In this document: piece by piece, positions 10,981 to 22,258 of the stretch | Numbering within the stretch: position 1 is the stretch's first letter | How the letters are laid out: every line of letters starts with the position of its first letter | Origin: Pedobacter sp. | GTDB taxonomy: Bacteria > Bacteroidota > Bacteroidia > Sphingobacteriales > Sphingobacteriaceae | Direction: 5' to 3' | Assembly: GCF_031119335.1 (NCBI RefSeq) | Contig: NZ_JAVHXT010000011.1 | Coordinates: 102,658-166,657, forward strand | Length of the DNA stretch: 64,000 bases | Made by a program: the position numbers and the translations under genes | Notes under the pieces: generated by a model | Told to the model about the DNA's origin: nothing | Seen by the model: the letters and a program-made list of their open reading frames with translations, nothing else | Databases searched by the model: none

Positions 10981-11367
10981 CTATGTCCATTCTTGTTTTA
11001 TCTTATAGCTTTCCATTTTTTTATCTTTAGATATCAATGTTAGCTTTTCTGATAAGGCTTGGGCAATAATTACTCTATCGAAAGGGTCGTTGTGATGAAG
11101 TTCGATAGCTAGCAACTGTAGCAAATGTTTTTCGTTAATGTCAAGAATTTCAATCTGATTTTCTTCTGCAAATCTAAAAAGCTGCTCAAAATCAATAGCA
11201 AGCTCTAGTTTTCCTATTTGCAGTTTAATGGCTATTTCCCAGAAAGATGCAATGCTGATGTAACAAGATACCTCAGTGTTTTCAATTTTGGCGACTACAT
11301 TACTCGGTAACTTATTGTCGCCAGCAATAAACCATAAAAAAGCATGAGTATCTAGTAGATATGCCAT
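10981..11367 (-). CDS. vapC: Type II toxin, PIN-domain ribonuclease (VapC-like)
   Basis: 128 aa. LLDTHAFLW...acidic residues...DPFDRVIIAQA is typical of PIN toxins. The start overlaps the antitoxin stop (TAATG). Confidence 0.85.
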   Translation of the reverse strand: MAYLLDTHAFLWFIAGDNKLPSNVVAKIENTEVSCYISIASFWEIAIKLQIGKLELAIDFEQLFRFAEENQIEILDINEKHLLQLLAIELHHNDPFDRVIIAQALSEKLTLISKDKKMESYKIKQEWT

Positions 11368-11570
11368 TATTGGTATGCTGAAAACATATCTAAAGGTTCG
11401 TCGAAATCATCGGCTAACTTTATTTTGCCTTTTGCATAACCGAATTGACGTGATTTTAATTTCGATTTCTTTACAGATTTAGCCTTCAAAAAAGCTACAA
11501 AATCAGCTACTTCCTGTCTCAAATGAGCAGGTAGAGAATTTATTTCTATTTGCAATTTTGTAGTAGTCAT
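11367..11570 (-). CDS. Type II antitoxin (DUF2281-like) partner of the PIN toxin
   Basis: 67 aa from the ATG at 11570. LP..LRQEVADFVAFLK... and C-terminal DFDEPLDMF match the pattern of DUF2281 antitoxins. The track ORF begins 6 nt upstream at a TTG. Confidence 0.75.
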   Translation of the reverse strand: MTTTKLQIEINSLPAHLRQEVADFVAFLKAKSVKKSKLKSRQFGYAKGKIKLADDFDEPLDMFSAYQ

Positions 11571-11573
11571 ATA

Positions 11574-11581
11574 CAAATATA
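11574..11581 (-). promoter_or_regulatory. Candidate -7 box (TATATTTG on the minus strand) 3 nt upstream of the VapB-like antitoxin ATG
   Basis: The minus-strand sequence reads TATATTTGTATATG, the same geometry as the module at 25803-25816. Confidence 0.4.
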
Positions 11582-13150: not shown

Positions 13151-16100
13151 ATGGATTATCAATTTAGAGAGATAGAGCAAAAGTGGCAGAAATATTGGGC
13201 CGACAATCAGTCGTTTAAAGCCGAAGCCAATTCAGACAAGCCGAAATACTATGTTTTAGACATGTTTCCTTATCCTTCGGGAGCAGGTTTGCACGTTGGT
13301 CATCCACTAGGTTATATCGCTTCTGATATTTTTTCGAGATATAAACGTTTAAAAGGTTACAATGTGTTGCATCCAATGGGTTACGATTCGTTCGGTTTGC
13401 CAGCTGAGCAATATGCTATTCAAACAGGACAACATCCGGCAGTAACTACAGAAACTAACATCAATACTTACCGTCGCCAGTTAGACCAAATCGGTTTTTC
13501 TTTCGATTGGAGCCGCGAAGTTCGTACCAGCGACCCAGCTTATTACAAATGGACGCAGTGGATTTTCATGCAATTGTTCAATTCTTGGTACAACTTAGAA
13601 ACGGATAAGGCAGAGCCGATTTCTACCTTAATTCATAAATTTAATGAAGCTGGCAGTGCCGATGTAAAAGCTGCTAAAGATGAAGACACTAGAACTTTCT
13701 TGCCTACAGATTGGGCTACTTTTAGCGAAGAAGAAAAGCAGGTAGAACTATTAAAATATCGCTTAACTTATTTAAAAGAAAGTACCGTAAACTGGTGCCC
13801 AGCTTTGGGTACAGTATTAGCTAACGATGAAGTTAAAGACGGATTTTCTGAGCGTGGTGGTTTTCCTGTAGAGCAAAAGAAAATGATGCAATGGAGTATG
13901 AGAATTACTGCTTATGCGGATAGACTTTTGCAAGGTTTGGACACCATCGATTGGCCAGAGCCGATGAAAGAAATGCAACGCAACTGGATTGGCAAGAGCG
14001 TTGGTGCGTCTGTTAAGTTTAAAATCCTCACCCCAACCCTCTCCGAAGGAGAGGGAGCAAGCAACTACGGTTACGAAACTGCAGACCCACTGTTATGGGA
14101 AATTTTGAAAACCAATGCGAGGGTAAACAGGGGCAATCAAACAGATGCTGAGGATGCACTTTGGCAAGAATTGAGAAATAGCAAAACAGGACATAAAGTT
14201 AGAAGACAACATCCTATTGGAACTTATATCGCCGATTTTATCTGTTTAAATAAAAGATTAATCATTGAAGTTGACGGTGGATATCATTTAGAAAATCAGG
14301 AGAATGATAAAGCCAGAACTGATGCGTTGAACCAATTGGGGTTTGAAGTAATCCGATTTACAAATGAAGAGGTTCTAAGTAATCTAAAAACTGTGGTAAC
14401 CCAAATAAAATTAGAACTTGATAGCAGACCTGATGCTAAATCAACCGCTTCAAATTCCCTCTCCTTTGGAGAGGGCCAGGGTGAGGCTTATATAGAGGTT
14501 TTCACTACACGTGTAGATACGATCTTCGGCGTTTCTTATTTGGTATTGGCACCAGAGCACGAATGGGTGGCAGAATTGACTACTCCTGAGCAAAAAGCTG
14601 ACATCGAAAATTACATCTTACAAACTAAAAAGAAATCGGAATTAGACCGCATGGCGGATGCTAAAACTGTTTCCGGTGCTTTTACGGGAACTTACGTGGT
14701 TAATCCGGTAAGTGGCGAGCGTGTGCAATTGTGGATTGCCGATTACGTATTGGCGGGTTACGGTACAGGTGCGGTAATGGGTGTGCCAAGTGGCGACCAA
14801 CGCGATTGGTTGTTTGCAACGCACTTCAATTTGCCGATTATCCAAATTTTGGATGCACAAAAAGATATTGATGTACAAGCTGACCCAACTAAAGAGGGTA
14901 AATACATCAACTCTGGTTTCATCAACGGAATGGAATACAAAGAAGCAGTTGCTTTCTTAAACCAATGGTTGGAAGACCAAGGCGTAGGAAAAGCGAAAGT
15001 GAATTTCCGCCAGCGTGATGCTATTTTTGGTCGCCAACGTTATTGGGGCGAGCCAATTCCCGTATATTTTAAAAATGGTTTGCCTTACTTGTTGAAAGAA
15101 GAGGAATTACCTTTGGTATTGCCAGAAATCGATAAATATTTACCAACTGAAACTGGCGAACCTCCATTGGGCAGAGCCGAAGATTGGAAATATGAAGATA
15201 GATACGAGTACGAATTATCGACCATGCCAGGCTGGGCAGGAAGTAGCTGGTATTGGTACCGTTACATGGATGCACAAAACAACAGTGAATTTGCCTCAAA
15301 AGAAGCAGTTGATTACTGGAAGGATGTGGATTTGTACATCGGTGGTTCTGAGCATGCAACTGGTCACTTGTTGTACAGCCGTTTCTGGAACAAATTTTTG
15401 AAGGATTTAGGTTTTGTACAAGAAGAAGAGCCTTTCAAAAAGTTGATTAACCAAGGGATGATACAAGGTAGAAGTAACTTTGTTTATCGTGTGGTTGATG
15501 AAGAAGGACGTGGTACGAACACTTTGGTTTCTGCTGGTTTAAGAAAAGATTACAAAACTATCGCTCTGCATGTTGATGTGAATATTGTAGAGAATGATGT
15601 TTTAGATATCGAAAAATTTAAAGCTTGGAGAGATGAATTTGCAAATGCAGAATTTATCTTAGAAAACGGTAAATACATCTGCGGTGTAGAAGTTGAAAAG
15701 ATGTCGAAATCTAAATTCAACGTGGTAAACCCAGATGTGTTAATTGCACAATACGGAGCAGATACTTTACGTATGTACGAAATGTTCTTAGGTCCATTAG
15801 AGCAAAGCAAACCTTGGAACACCAACGGTATCGAAGGCGTGTTTAAGTTCTTGCGTAAATTCTGGCGTTTGTTCCATAACGAAGCTTGGGAGTTTACCGT
15901 AAGCGATGCAGAGCCAACCAAAGCAGAGTTAAAAGCGTTGCATAAAATCATTAAGAAAGTACAAGATGATGTAGAAAGGTTCTCTTTCAATACATCGGTT
16001 TCTAGCTTTATGATTGCTGTAAACGAGCTTACAGATTTGAAATGCAACAAAAAAGCAATTCTACAAGATTTAGTAGTAGTATTGGCGCCTTATGCACCGC

Positions 16101-16378
16101 ACATCTGCGAAGAATTGTGGTCGTTGTTAGGAAATAAAGATTTGTCTACTGCTCAGTATCCGGTTTTCAACCCTAATTATTTGGTAGAAGATGAGTTTGC
16201 CTATCCAATTTCTATCAATGGAAAAATGAAGATGAACTTGAACCTAAGCTTGACCTTGGAAGCGAAAGAAGCTGAAGAAGCAGTTTTGGCCAACGAGCAA
16301 GTTCAAGGATTTTTGAATGGTGCTGCACCAAAGAAAATCATCTTTGTTAAAGGAAAGATTGTGAATATTGTTGTATAG
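13151..16378 (+). CDS. leuS: Leucine--tRNA ligase carrying an in-frame DUF559 endonuclease-domain insertion
   Basis: HIGH motif (HVGHPLGY), KMSKS (VEKMSKSK), NWIGKS block and Thr-rich editing motif (TTRVDT). At 1075 aa it is about 155 aa longer than the flanking LeuRS blocks require, because of the insert at aa 292-446. Confidence 0.97.
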   Translation: MDYQFREIEQKWQKYWADNQSFKAEANSDKPKYYVLDMFPYPSGAGLHVGHPLGYIASDIFSRYKRLKGYNVLHPMGYDSFGLPAEQYAIQTGQHPAVTTETNINTYRRQLDQIGFSFDWSREVRTSDPAYYKWTQWIFMQLFNSWYNLETDKAEPISTLIHKFNEAGSADVKAAKDEDTRTFLPTDWATFSEEEKQVELLKYRLTYLKESTVNWCPALGTVLANDEVKDGFSERGGFPVEQKKMMQWSMRITAYADRLLQGLDTIDWPEPMKEMQRNWIGKSVGASVKFKILTPTLSEGEGASNYGYETADPLLWEILKTNARVNRGNQTDAEDALWQELRNSKTGHKVRRQHPIGTYIADFICLNKRLIIEVDGGYHLENQENDKARTDALNQLGFEVIRFTNEEVLSNLKTVVTQIKLELDSRPDAKSTASNSLSFGEGQGEAYIEVFTTRVDTIFGVSYLVLAPEHEWVAELTTPEQKADIENYILQTKKKSELDRMADAKTVSGAFTGTYVVNPVSGERVQLWIADYVLAGYGTGAVMGVPSGDQRDWLFATHFNLPIIQILDAQKDIDVQADPTKEGKYINSGFINGMEYKEAVAFLNQWLEDQGVGKAKVNFRQRDAIFGRQRYWGEPIPVYFKNGLPYLLKEEELPLVLPEIDKYLPTETGEPPLGRAEDWKYEDRYEYELSTMPGWAGSSWYWYRYMDAQNNSEFASKEAVDYWKDVDLYIGGSEHATGHLLYSRFWNKFLKDLGFVQEEEPFKKLINQGMIQGRSNFVYRVVDEEGRGTNTLVSAGLRKDYKTIALHVDVNIVENDVLDIEKFKAWRDEFANAEFILENGKYICGVEVEKMSKSKFNVVNPDVLIAQYGADTLRMYEMFLGPLEQSKPWNTNGIEGVFKFLRKFWRLFHNEAWEFTVSDAEPTKAELKALHKIIKKVQDDVERFSFNTSVSSFMIAVNELTDLKCNKKAILQDLVVVLAPYAPHICEELWSLLGNKDLSTAQYPVFNPNYLVEDEFAYPISINGKMKMNLNLSLTLEAKEAEEAVLANEQVQGFLNGAAPKKIIFVKGKIVNIVV
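14026..14486 (+). mobile_element. TIR-bounded cassette encoding a DUF559/Vsr-like PD-(D/E)xK endonuclease domain, inserted in frame in leuS
   Basis: Left end is CCTCACCCCAACCCTCTCCGAAGGAGAGGG (14026-14055). The reverse complement of 14457-14486 is CCTCACCCTGGCCCTCTCCAAAGGAGAGGG, 26/30 identical. Each end holds an 8-bp stem/3-nt loop hairpin. The interior encodes a DUF559-type domain. Exact boundaries are uncertain by about 1-2 nt. Confidence 0.7.
14117..14419 (+). other. DUF559 (restriction-endonuclease-like, Vsr-related) domain core within LeuRS, aa ~323-423
   Basis: ARVNRGNQTDAEDALWQELRN...KVRRQHPIGTYIADFICLNKRLIIEVDGGYH....D..R...L...GFEVIRFTNEEV matches the hallmark pattern of stand-alone DUF559 proteins. 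The acidic residues D362, E373 and D375 are intact. Confidence 0.8.
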
Positions 16379-21863: not shown

Positions 21864-21956
21864 ATTAAAAAGCGATATTCTTGAATTATGCGCAAATGTA
21901 CGTTTATCGGTCTAATAAAAAGTTAAATTATATTTATAAAAGAAGATCAATATTTC

Positions 21957-22234
21957 GGCTAAAGCCTTATTTTAAGCTCTAATAAAATCCGTTGGCTGAA
22001 GCCAACGGCAATGAATTTTAATTAGGCTGGTTTATTGCCGGAATCCATCTATAACACGGATGTTTGAGCAGGAAGCGGCTTTGGGAAAATTATTTAGAAG
22101 CGATTTCTTTTGACCTACCCAACGTATCATCAATTAAGCTTGCTAATCCCGAACAGCAATGAGTTTTAATTAGACTTGTTCATTGCCGTCGACTTTAGTC
22201 GACGGTTTTTGAGTTTAATTTGGTGGCTTTAGCC
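21957..22234. repeat. Composite MITE-like element with inverted family G ends (GGCTAAAGCC ... CCGT[TC]G[GA]CT.AAG[CT]C[AG]ACGGCAATGAA)
   Basis: Left arm 21957-22016 and right arm 22170-22234 are inverted copies. Each contains a perfect hairpin: 21989-22008 CCGTTGGCTGAAGCCAACGG and 22186-22205 CCGTCGACTTTAGTCGACGG. Confidence 0.7.
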
Positions 22235-22258
22235 AAAATTATAAATCCAACAGGGAAA

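Follow-up and report, generated by a model that had tools for sequence, protein, structure and literature searches.

A compact, inverted-repeat-bounded insert encoding a predicted DUF559/Vsr-like nuclease lies in frame within leuS of a Pedobacter species

The gene for leucyl-tRNA synthetase (LeuRS), leuS, lies at positions 13151-16378 on the forward strand of a 64,000-nucleotide stretch of Pedobacter sp. contig NZ_JAVHXT010000011.1 (assembly GCF_031119335.1), which is the whole of the DNA analysed and is called the window here. Within its reading frame this gene carries a segment that encodes a predicted nuclease of the DUF559 family. The gene was assigned from the list of open reading frames, the TIGR00396 profile and synteny; its 1075-residue product scores 912 bits against TIGR00396 (leuS_bact, cutoff 548), and the HVGH and KMSKS motifs are intact. 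The order FtsX-leuS is common to genes with and without the segment, and since it is shared with relatives whose site is empty, the window gene is the resident, orthologous leuS. The extra residues are LeuRS aa 292-446, a stretch of 155 residues in a single uninterrupted open frame, located in a surface hairpin loop at the entrance of the editing domain.

Alignment of the window DNA with L083, L088 and L089 indicates that a segment of 468 nt (14024-14491, forward strand, as are all features of the insert) replaces the loop of the empty alleles. In the closest empty alleles this loop is 21 nt, GTAGAAAACAGCGAAAAACAA, encoding the peptide VENSEKQ, so that the net gain is 149 codons; relative to the nearest empty allele, the insertion is not a clean one between two adjacent residues. 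The element proper extends from terminus to terminus over 463 nt (14025-14487), as judged from the terminus consensus of related copies, (A)G-CCTCACC ... GGTGAGG-C(T), which was derived from the 80 genome loci and 87 mini-elements described below. The terminal bases are G...C in 75 of the 87 mini-elements; the window copy departs from the consensus at its left end, with T in place of G. The initial annotation had placed the cassette at 14026-14486. The repeats do lie there, but the span of 461 nt is not a multiple of three and so cannot itself be an in-frame unit, and the termini are one base further out on each side.

The left terminal inverted repeat (14025-14055), translated as LTPTLSEGEG, consists of an outer block, CCTCACCCC, a spacer, AAC, and a palindromic hairpin at 14037-14055, which is an exact CCCTCTCC-GAA-GGAGAGGG with an 8-bp stem and a 3-nt loop. 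It is followed by an N-terminal linker and a helix (14056-14107, delimited by alignment and model confidence), which include a conserved GYETADP motif, and then by the nuclease core (14108-14419). A C-terminal linker (14420-14456), which varies in length and sequence among elements at this site and is mostly modelled with low confidence, leads to the right terminal inverted repeat (14457-14487). The latter, translated as SLSFGEGQGEA, has the mirror-image order: an exact hairpin at 14457-14475 (CCCTCTCC-TTT-GGAGAGGG, again with an 8-bp stem and a 3-nt loop), a spacer, CCA, and an outer block, GGGTGAGGC. The imperfect inverted repeats and both hairpins had been noticed at the outset and are confirmed, with 26 of 30 positions identical between the terminal 30-mers; a repeat search extends the arms to 37 nt (14020-14056 and 14456-14492) that are 84% complementary. 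The repeats are 67% G+C, versus 38% for the window, and no third hairpin of this kind is found in the 64 kb, where 0.00 are expected (100 shuffles). An Rfam scan of the region returned a single sub-threshold match, 'whalefall-1', on the right hairpin, which was rejected, and no intron. At the protein level, the junctions read KFKI|LTP... and ...GEA|YIEVF, and the nuclease frame has no start or stop codon of its own, either in the window insert or in the embedded copies elsewhere.

Taken alone, the insert matches DUF559 (PF04480) with E=1.7e-35 (121.6 bits, cutoff 20.6) over profile positions 3-108 of 109, which correspond to LeuRS aa 320-423, so that the initial assignment to a DUF559/Vsr-like domain stands. 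DUF559/MTES_1575 is the only Pfam domain in the insert, and a match to NCBIfam PRK09767 falls below the equivalog cutoff. The limits of the core were set by Pfam, the invariant columns and the fold. The catalytic-type residues D362 (14234-14236), E373 (14267-14269), D375 (14273-14275) and H379 (14285-14287), which are D71, E82, D84 and H88 in insert numbering, are invariant in alignments of 24 and of 88 sequences, the first three having already been counted as intact; in the 88 homologues, which include embedded and free copies, they are among 14 invariant columns. A sequence search against the PDB finds the DUF559 crystal structure 3HRL (E=3e-23) and, marginally, 3R3P, the homing endonuclease I-Bth0305I (E=0.14).

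An AlphaFold2 (AF2) model of the insert, built with the 88-homologue alignment, has a mean predicted local distance difference test score (pLDDT) of 79. The score exceeds 85 over most of residues 21-140, is 71-76 for residues 81-100, and falls at the repeat-encoded termini (below 50 for residues 1-14; block means of 48-49 for residues 141-155). In Foldseek searches the model matches 3HRL (E=1e-8, template modelling (TM) score 0.89), the catalytic domain of I-Bth0305I, 3R3P (E=8e-5, TM 0.75) and Vsr, 1VSR (E=0.08). The modelled fold and the profile match place the insert in the DUF559/Vsr fold, and it is accordingly a predicted nuclease. The model of the full 1075-residue protein, with a mean pLDDT of 58, is too poor to position the domain on LeuRS and was used only for local confidence, which is below 50 in the linkers at LeuRS 294-313 and 430-445. 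A scan with PADLOC defence-system models gave only a marginal match to mREase_II, that is, no match to known defence families. Surveys of PD-(D/E)xK nucleases place DUF559 beside Vsr and assign it no role (PMC3424549, PMC1189080). Separately, the fold search returned mitoribosomal large-subunit proteins of Toxoplasma and Tetrahymena, which match the DUF559 model with probabilities of 0.92-1.0 (PDB 9i05, 9g6k, 6z1p); these structural matches suggest that DUF559-like domains may have been recruited into the mitoribosomes of alveolates (apicomplexans and ciliates).

Among four leuS-borne copies, the ratio of nonsynonymous to synonymous substitution rates (dN/dS) is 0.07-0.11 for the nuclease core, 0.03-0.06 for the host gene (0.025 for the host against P. 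xixiisoli) and 0.13-0.46 for the linkers and repeats, which are looser than the core; dS is saturated in these estimates, so that only a qualitative conclusion about selection is safe. That conclusion is that the nuclease core is maintained by purifying selection.

The 120 closest LeuRS proteins were compared, and a tree was calculated on host residues alone (the host tree). In the nearest relatives, namely P. xixiisoli, P. ureilyticus and related metagenome-assembled genomes (MAGs), the site is empty. Their LeuRS is 926 aa long, 96-97% identical in amino acids and about 92% identical in DNA, and reads KFK-VENS(E/D)KQ-IEVFTT, with a 7-residue loop, where the window protein reads KFK-I[155 aa]Y-IEVFTT. 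The host tree places the window allele in a clade whose other members, about 25 alleles, are all empty, and the element has thus been gained recently in this Pedobacter lineage. Across the 120 proteins, this position (site 1) is filled in 44, by two unrelated element lineages. Type A has the ends LTPxLSxGEG...SLSxGEGxGEA, and type B has PLAPKGG...PPLGxGG, with DNA ends that show the same architecture built from C5/G5. A second site, about 390 residues downstream, is filled in 12 of the 120 by a third element lineage; two proteins have elements at both sites, and LeuRS P0199 carries an element together with a mini-element. Filled and empty states interleave down to nearly identical hosts and are incongruent with the host phylogeny. 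The initial annotation had taken the segment to be an insertion and not a fixed LeuRS domain, and this ortholog alignment, with empty closest relatives and patchy occupancy, agrees.

The same data bear on the idea that the segment belongs to the LeuRS of Bacteroidota as an ancient accessory domain, one that is lineage-specific, descends vertically and has repeatedly been lost, with a host function such as nucleic-acid binding or moonlighting and with incidental repeats. Such a domain would be consistent with the occupancy of site 1 in several orders of Bacteroidota, with the divergence of the inserts among Pedobacter copies, which is about that of their hosts, and with the purifying selection on the domain. 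It does not account for a single filled allele within a clade of about 25 empty ones, for the presence of three unrelated element lineages at two sites, or for LeuRS proteins that are 99% identical and differ in the presence of the element.

One such near-isogenic pair shows how an element arrives. P0170, in which site 2 is filled, and P0236, in which it is empty (DNA loci L090 and L091), have LeuRS proteins that are 99% identical and DNA that is about 98% identical; 8 of 941 residues differ, and 6 of these are at the site. The two DNAs are identical for the 93 nt that lead up to the junction. In P0170, 27 nt of the empty allele then give way to the element (GCCCCACCCCAACCCTCCCCAGAGGGGAGGG...GGTGGGGC) together with foreign flanks, 16 nt before it and 9 nt after it, and the next 300 nt contain 14 substitutions versus 39 in the rest of the gene (about 2500 nt). 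This pattern is that of import by homologous recombination from a diverged filled allele, with co-conversion of the flanks. In the window copy the native loop is likewise gone and the flanking I and Y are those of filled alleles, for which reasons it most likely arrived by recombination with an already filled leuS allele and not by fresh transposition into the loop. Consequently, the earlier picture of a mobile cassette that landed in a LeuRS loop is kept as regards mobility and translation and is modified as regards the landing.

Several peculiarities were met among these LeuRS genes. The long loop of the empty site 1 in Pedobacter agri leuS (L086) starts with a 14-nt tandem duplication (TTTAAGATTGACGA x2) that is read in two frames, which may have been left by earlier traffic of elements or have arisen by simple slippage; when the long variable loops of empty alleles were considered as excision footprints, no recognisable repeat remnant was found in the P. 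agri loop. In a metagenomic LeuRS of 1034 aa (P0123), about 108 aa of LeuRS sequence surrounding site 2 are present twice, which may be an assembly artefact or a rearrangement at an insertion hot spot. A filled LeuRS labelled Agrobacterium tumefaciens (P0127) probably owes its label to contamination. Three full-length LeuRS proteins (P0169, P0184 and P0197) are named 'DUF559 domain-containing protein' at NCBI, the insert misleading automatic naming.

The cassette is not confined to leuS. A scan of species-representative genomes gave at least 600 stretches that match the pattern; of the 600 listed, 594 encode a relative of the insert, and the best 80 loci were analysed. In about 70 of these 80 the DUF559 match lies inside a much larger open frame, a share that is biased upward, since a leuS-borne query was used to pick these 80 as its best matches. 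Clustering and Pfam identify LeuRS as the host at 35 loci (about 29 at site 1, 4 at site 2). The other hosts in this set include MetH (several sites), an IcmF-like mutase-MeaB fusion (two sites), type ISP restriction-modification (RM) enzymes, IleRS, UDP-GlcNAc 2-epimerase, adenine deaminase, GH31, acetyl-CoA synthetase (ACS), a PaaZ-like protein, RecG, DegT and TruB, and stand-alone DUF559 genes with the same architecture are also present. When 1.84 billion cluster representatives were searched exhaustively, 22,422 of them proved to be relatives (E<=1e-3); among the top 150, 49 are flanked on both sides by other sequence and 46 on one side, and the hosts there further include Eco57I-type RM enzymes, TPR-SpoIIE and CapD-like proteins, TGT, CinA and RecJ. 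In all, the cassette occurs in more than 20 unrelated protein families. The relatives are nearly all from Bacteroidota, in which LeuRS site 1 is occupied across several orders. Phages do not appear to be vectors: the 2.9 million viral contigs searched contain just 42 relatives, all distant and almost all stand-alone.

In a tree of the nuclease core (113 columns; rough and not robust), copies group partly by host taxon and then by site, and one Sphingobacteriaceae clade unites copies from LeuRS site 1, LeuRS site 2, the mutase and TruB. Read from these sequences, the tree suggests that occasional moves between genes within a lineage may be followed by spread at each site. Some family members stand out. 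Embedded elements are present in MAGs labelled Candidatus Paceibacterota (L038, in LeuRS), Hyphomicrobiales (L053, in a type ISP RM enzyme) and Ignavibacteriaceae (L018, in MetH), the labels reflecting either spread beyond Bacteroidota or binning contamination. One Eco57I-type RM methylase (P0244, 1214 aa) has two DUF559 domains, and in a mutase open reading frame (L174, 1059-3230) a full element adjoins a nuclease-less one.

Strong flanking inverted repeats bound a unit of 420-540 bp at about 55 of the 80 loci, including small stand-alone genes (L069, for example, has a 46-nt repeat), and the repeats, whose recurrence the initial annotation had proposed to test, are not unique to the window: the same architecture is present at copies in other host genes, at stand-alone genes and in mini-elements. 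The repeats are 30-45 nt each and their plan is constant, with an outer block, (A)GCCTCACCCC / (G)CCTCACCCC, a spacer of 3-5 nt, and a palindrome with a pyrimidine arm, a 3-nt loop and a purine arm. Perfect pyrimidine-arm hairpins are present at both ends in 53 of 81 loci. The stems covary between elements and stay complementary (CCCTCTCC, CCCCTCC, CCCCCC, CCCTTTCC, CCCTTCCC, CCTCCCCC). The hairpins are translated in all three frames (left, 10/22/13; right, 7/31/7), and the peptides vary. Since the left and right repeats are translated from opposite senses, selection at the protein level cannot maintain their complementarity; the hairpins are conserved at the nucleic-acid level. The genetic code has no stop codon made only of pyrimidines or only of purines, so that the palindromes are open in every frame, encoding Pro/Ser/Leu and Gly/Glu/Arg/Lys. 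Single repeat units, each an outer block with its hairpin, also occur in tandem (ACCTCACCCCCTACCCCCTCTCCAAAGGAGAGGGGGTGAATT is one unit found repeated), at L107 14251-14393, L110 17-100 and L102 9958-10019; these solo-repeat arrays are distinct from the mini-elements, and some lie within long open frames and some adjoin a DUF559 copy.

The mini-elements, which resemble transposable elements of the miniature inverted-repeat kind (MITEs), have these ends and no nuclease. A metagenome scan for two such hairpins 10-40 nt apart gave at least 120 loci, and complete mini-elements with both outer blocks are present at 87 of the 120 loci listed (68-101 bp, median 84). In one case, compared with a full element from a mutase gene, 28 of 30 nt match on the left and 36 of 36 nt on the right, and the interior is deleted. 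Most mini-elements are intergenic; open frames of 300 aa or longer continue through 21 of them. Among the hosts, those examined with Pfam are AlaRS, an IcmF-like mutase, IspG, an APH-type kinase, an M20 peptidase and a DUF5703 protein. Three more, recognised from the flanking LeuRS peptide, are in LeuRS itself, at site 1 (L189) and at site 2 (L149 and L197), in the opposite orientation to full elements with the same pair of end variants. The target-site duplication that the initial annotation had proposed to look for is missing: none of the 87 mini-elements has one of 3 bp or more, a 2-bp repeat occurs in 9 of 87, which is about chance, and none is seen at the genome loci. Nor do the genome loci and the 87 mini-elements reveal a target motif common to the host genes, beyond flanks that are T-rich on the left and A-rich on the right.

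These results also speak against an ancient LeuRS domain. The same cassette is in more than 20 unrelated protein families and in stand-alone genes, its repeats encode different peptides and are nevertheless reverse-complementary, with hairpins in all three frames, and MITE derivatives exist. This explanation is already contradicted, and we give it almost no credence.

The paired repeats also raise the possibility that the insert is removed before the mature enzyme is made, either from the RNA through the 29-bp stem formed by the repeats, or through unrecognised protein splicing or proteolysis, which would make it a new kind of intron or intein. RNA folding does pair the ends into an 8+21-bp stem that encloses the element (z=-4.6), and the elements favour conserved essential genes, as inteins do. 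Yet no intron is matched in Rfam, and there is no Hint/intein domain and there are no Cys/Ser/Thr or His-Asn junction residues, so that the statement in the initial annotation that intein splice junctions are missing is upheld. Moreover, the host frame is preserved in all embedded copies, none of which has its own start or stop codon, a constraint that would apply only if ribosomes translate across the insert; the nuclease could not otherwise be expressed; and the MITEs, in either orientation, are also open in frame. Removal of the insert is thus very improbable.

Taken together, these observations argue for a compact selfish element whose predicted nuclease homes into empty alleles, with the repeats as its sites and residence in essential genes as its protection; we put the probability of this reading at roughly 0.7. 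The nuclease would be produced solely when ribosomes read through the host gene, as an additional domain of the protein that the element has invaded, and in-frame translation is required, because every embedded copy keeps the host frame and lacks its own start and stop codons. The Pro/Ser/Gly/Glu-rich peptides encoded by the repeats would act as flexible linkers, from which, we propose, the domain hangs off a surface loop without killing LeuRS. The embedded nuclease would cut or nick DNA at empty target sites, and repair from the filled allele would copy the element in (homing); the window copy may have been acquired in this way, with another Pedobacter leuS allele as donor. Recognition of the terminal-repeat palindromes by the nuclease may underlie rarer moves to new genes and the mobilisation of MITEs. 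Finally, residence in essential genes would protect the element, because only a precise in-frame deletion is viable.

Several points weigh against such an element. DNA cleavage by the insert, its target and the mechanism of its mobility are deduced from sequence. Homing needs no terminal repeats, and transposition normally leaves a target duplication, which is not seen here; the two halves of the proposed mechanism are therefore not unified. Next to the window copy there are four donor-like sites to the left of the junction, but these are polymorphic among three empty alleles, for which reason no co-conversion tract is demonstrable, and the sampled elements at site 1 are only about 80% identical to the window copy, so that its donor is unsampled. 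Divergent nuclease lineages occupy one and the same LeuRS loop, as do MITEs inserted in the opposite orientation, and selection for a permissive loop, without any site specificity of the nuclease, could explain this sharing. Finally, the neighbor-joining trees are rough, the saturated dS limits what can be said about selection, and the best 80 loci overstate the embedded share.

A rival reading is that the cassette is mobile but the nuclease is not its engine. In that case it would spread by homologous recombination or natural transformation, helped by enzymes of the host or of other elements that act on the repeats, and the nuclease would be kept for another role, which could be defence, repair or post-segregational 'addiction'. 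The data directly show import by homologous recombination, the genome loci and mini-elements reveal no target site shared by the different host genes, one site is shared by divergent nucleases, and the strong long-term purifying selection on the nuclease is unusual for homing endonucleases at fixation. However, DUF559 is the only protein that is always linked to these repeats, the existence of MITEs with identical ends implies a trans-acting factor that recognises the ends, the closest characterised structure is that of a homing endonuclease, and there is no match to known defence families. We therefore regard passive spread as unlikely, and prefer a homing-type selfish nuclease element, with a substantial chance that it represents a distinct class of transposable element.

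The latter would add a new class to the bacterial transposable elements, and at about 0.45 kb its members would be the smallest that are autonomous, with a predicted DUF559/Vsr-like nuclease as their sole protein and with MITEs that are mobilised in trans, a proposal that we hold tentatively, at a little short of even odds. Elements of this class may insert without target duplication and then spread from allele to allele by homing, and the large DUF559 family may thereby gain its first biological role. With respect to the role for DUF559 that the initial annotation suggested, the results extend to this subfamily, which is centred on Bacteroidota, and not to DUF559 in general. No recognised transposase (DDE, HUH, or Ser/Tyr recombinase) is encoded: in Pfam scans of the insert and the best loci, DUF559 was the only domain found. 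As in transposons bounded by inverted repeats, conserved ends are found at unrelated loci together with non-autonomous derivatives; the target-site duplication of such transposons is missing.

Similarities to known systems are partial. The Rickettsia palindromic elements (RPEs) are short palindromes that essential proteins accommodate, as additional peptide, in their surface regions. To our knowledge, they have no associated nuclease gene, and they are an unrelated sequence family of Alphaproteobacteria. The comparison with RPEs made in the initial annotation is a fitting one, since mini-elements sit in AlaRS, IspG, the mutase and LeuRS without breaking the frame; this resemblance of the 84-bp mini-elements is one of function only, and unlike RPEs they share their ends with a nuclease-carrying form. 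Inteins with a homing endonuclease also reside in frame in essential enzymes (aminoacyl-tRNA synthetases, helicases, B12 enzymes), are translated with the host and are spread by the nuclease. The window element is like them in its in-frame residence; it differs in having no Hint domain and no splice-junction residues, and it presumably stays in the mature protein as a result. The REP/RAYT and IS200/IS605 systems combine a single small gene, inverted GC-rich hairpins, many gene-less hairpin copies and no target duplication. Their enzymes are HUH tyrosine transposases that act on single-stranded DNA, and the elements are extragenic, whereas here a predicted PD-(D/E)xK nuclease is found and the element is inside reading frames.

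The closest characterised enzymes are the Vsr-like ('EDxHD') homing endonucleases, I-Bth0305I (PDB 3R3P; PMC3239194) and the 'fractured gene' nucleases (PMC2677866). They share with the window element a PD-(D/E)xK fold of the Vsr type, a location inside conserved genes, sporadic filled and empty alleles, and spread by recombination. Unlike the window element, they are housed in group I introns or between the halves of split inteins, have their own frame and are spliced out; the window element has no splicing element, is a translated domain of its host, and has terminal repeats and MITEs. None of the usual housings of a homing endonuclease, namely a self-splicing intron, an intein or a free-standing open reading frame, is present at this locus. 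The closest published arrangement is the ShiLan-type insertion in the DNA methylase genes of actinophages, which, according to its abstract, is homing-like, has no detectable intron or intein, leaves the host frame open and carries an endonuclease (PMC11855218, 2025). That abstract describes an HNH nuclease that is out of frame, has its own GTG and TAA and resides in a phage gene, and it makes no mention of terminal inverted repeats or MITEs; the window element, in contrast, encodes DUF559, uses the host frame and belongs to a family found in chromosomal housekeeping genes across a phylum. In full-text literature searches, whose coverage excludes subscription journals, no paper was found that describes DUF559 as an element inserted in frame or bounded by inverted repeats. 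The family is large, apparently undescribed, and situated inside many housekeeping genes of Bacteroidota.

Two other features of the window were recorded. Just beyond the FtsX and DUF3098 genes that flank leuS, a VapC-type toxin-antitoxin pair lies on the reverse strand at 10981-11576, in which a PIN-domain protein of 128 aa (PF01850, E=4e-18) is downstream of a 69-aa DUF2281 protein with an overlap of 1 nt. The intergenic region 21864-22258 contains several small hairpins of the GGCTnnAGCC type, for example CCGTTGGC-TGAA-GCCAACGG at 21989-22008 and CCGTCGAC-TTTA-GTCGACGG at 22186-22205, as well as GGCTAAAGCC and GGCTTTAGCC; similar GGCTTCAGCC motifs are found downstream of leuS in L090 and L091. 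These hairpins may be a separate, REP-like repeat family of Pedobacter.

If the proposed element is confirmed, it would represent a third way into an essential gene, in which a selfish nuclease persists without an intron or intein as a tolerated extra domain, and it would give a concrete function to part of DUF559. The family explains puzzling annotations, such as LeuRS proteins that are named for DUF559 and the unexplained low-complexity PSP..GEG segments in enzymes of Bacteroidota. Its insertion sites form a natural map of loops that tolerate a domain insertion (in aminoacyl-tRNA synthetases, MetH, IcmF, RecG and others), which is of use for protein engineering, and compact nucleases with defined DNA targets may be obtained from it. 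In Pedobacter and its relatives, the filled and empty alleles can serve as strain-level markers.

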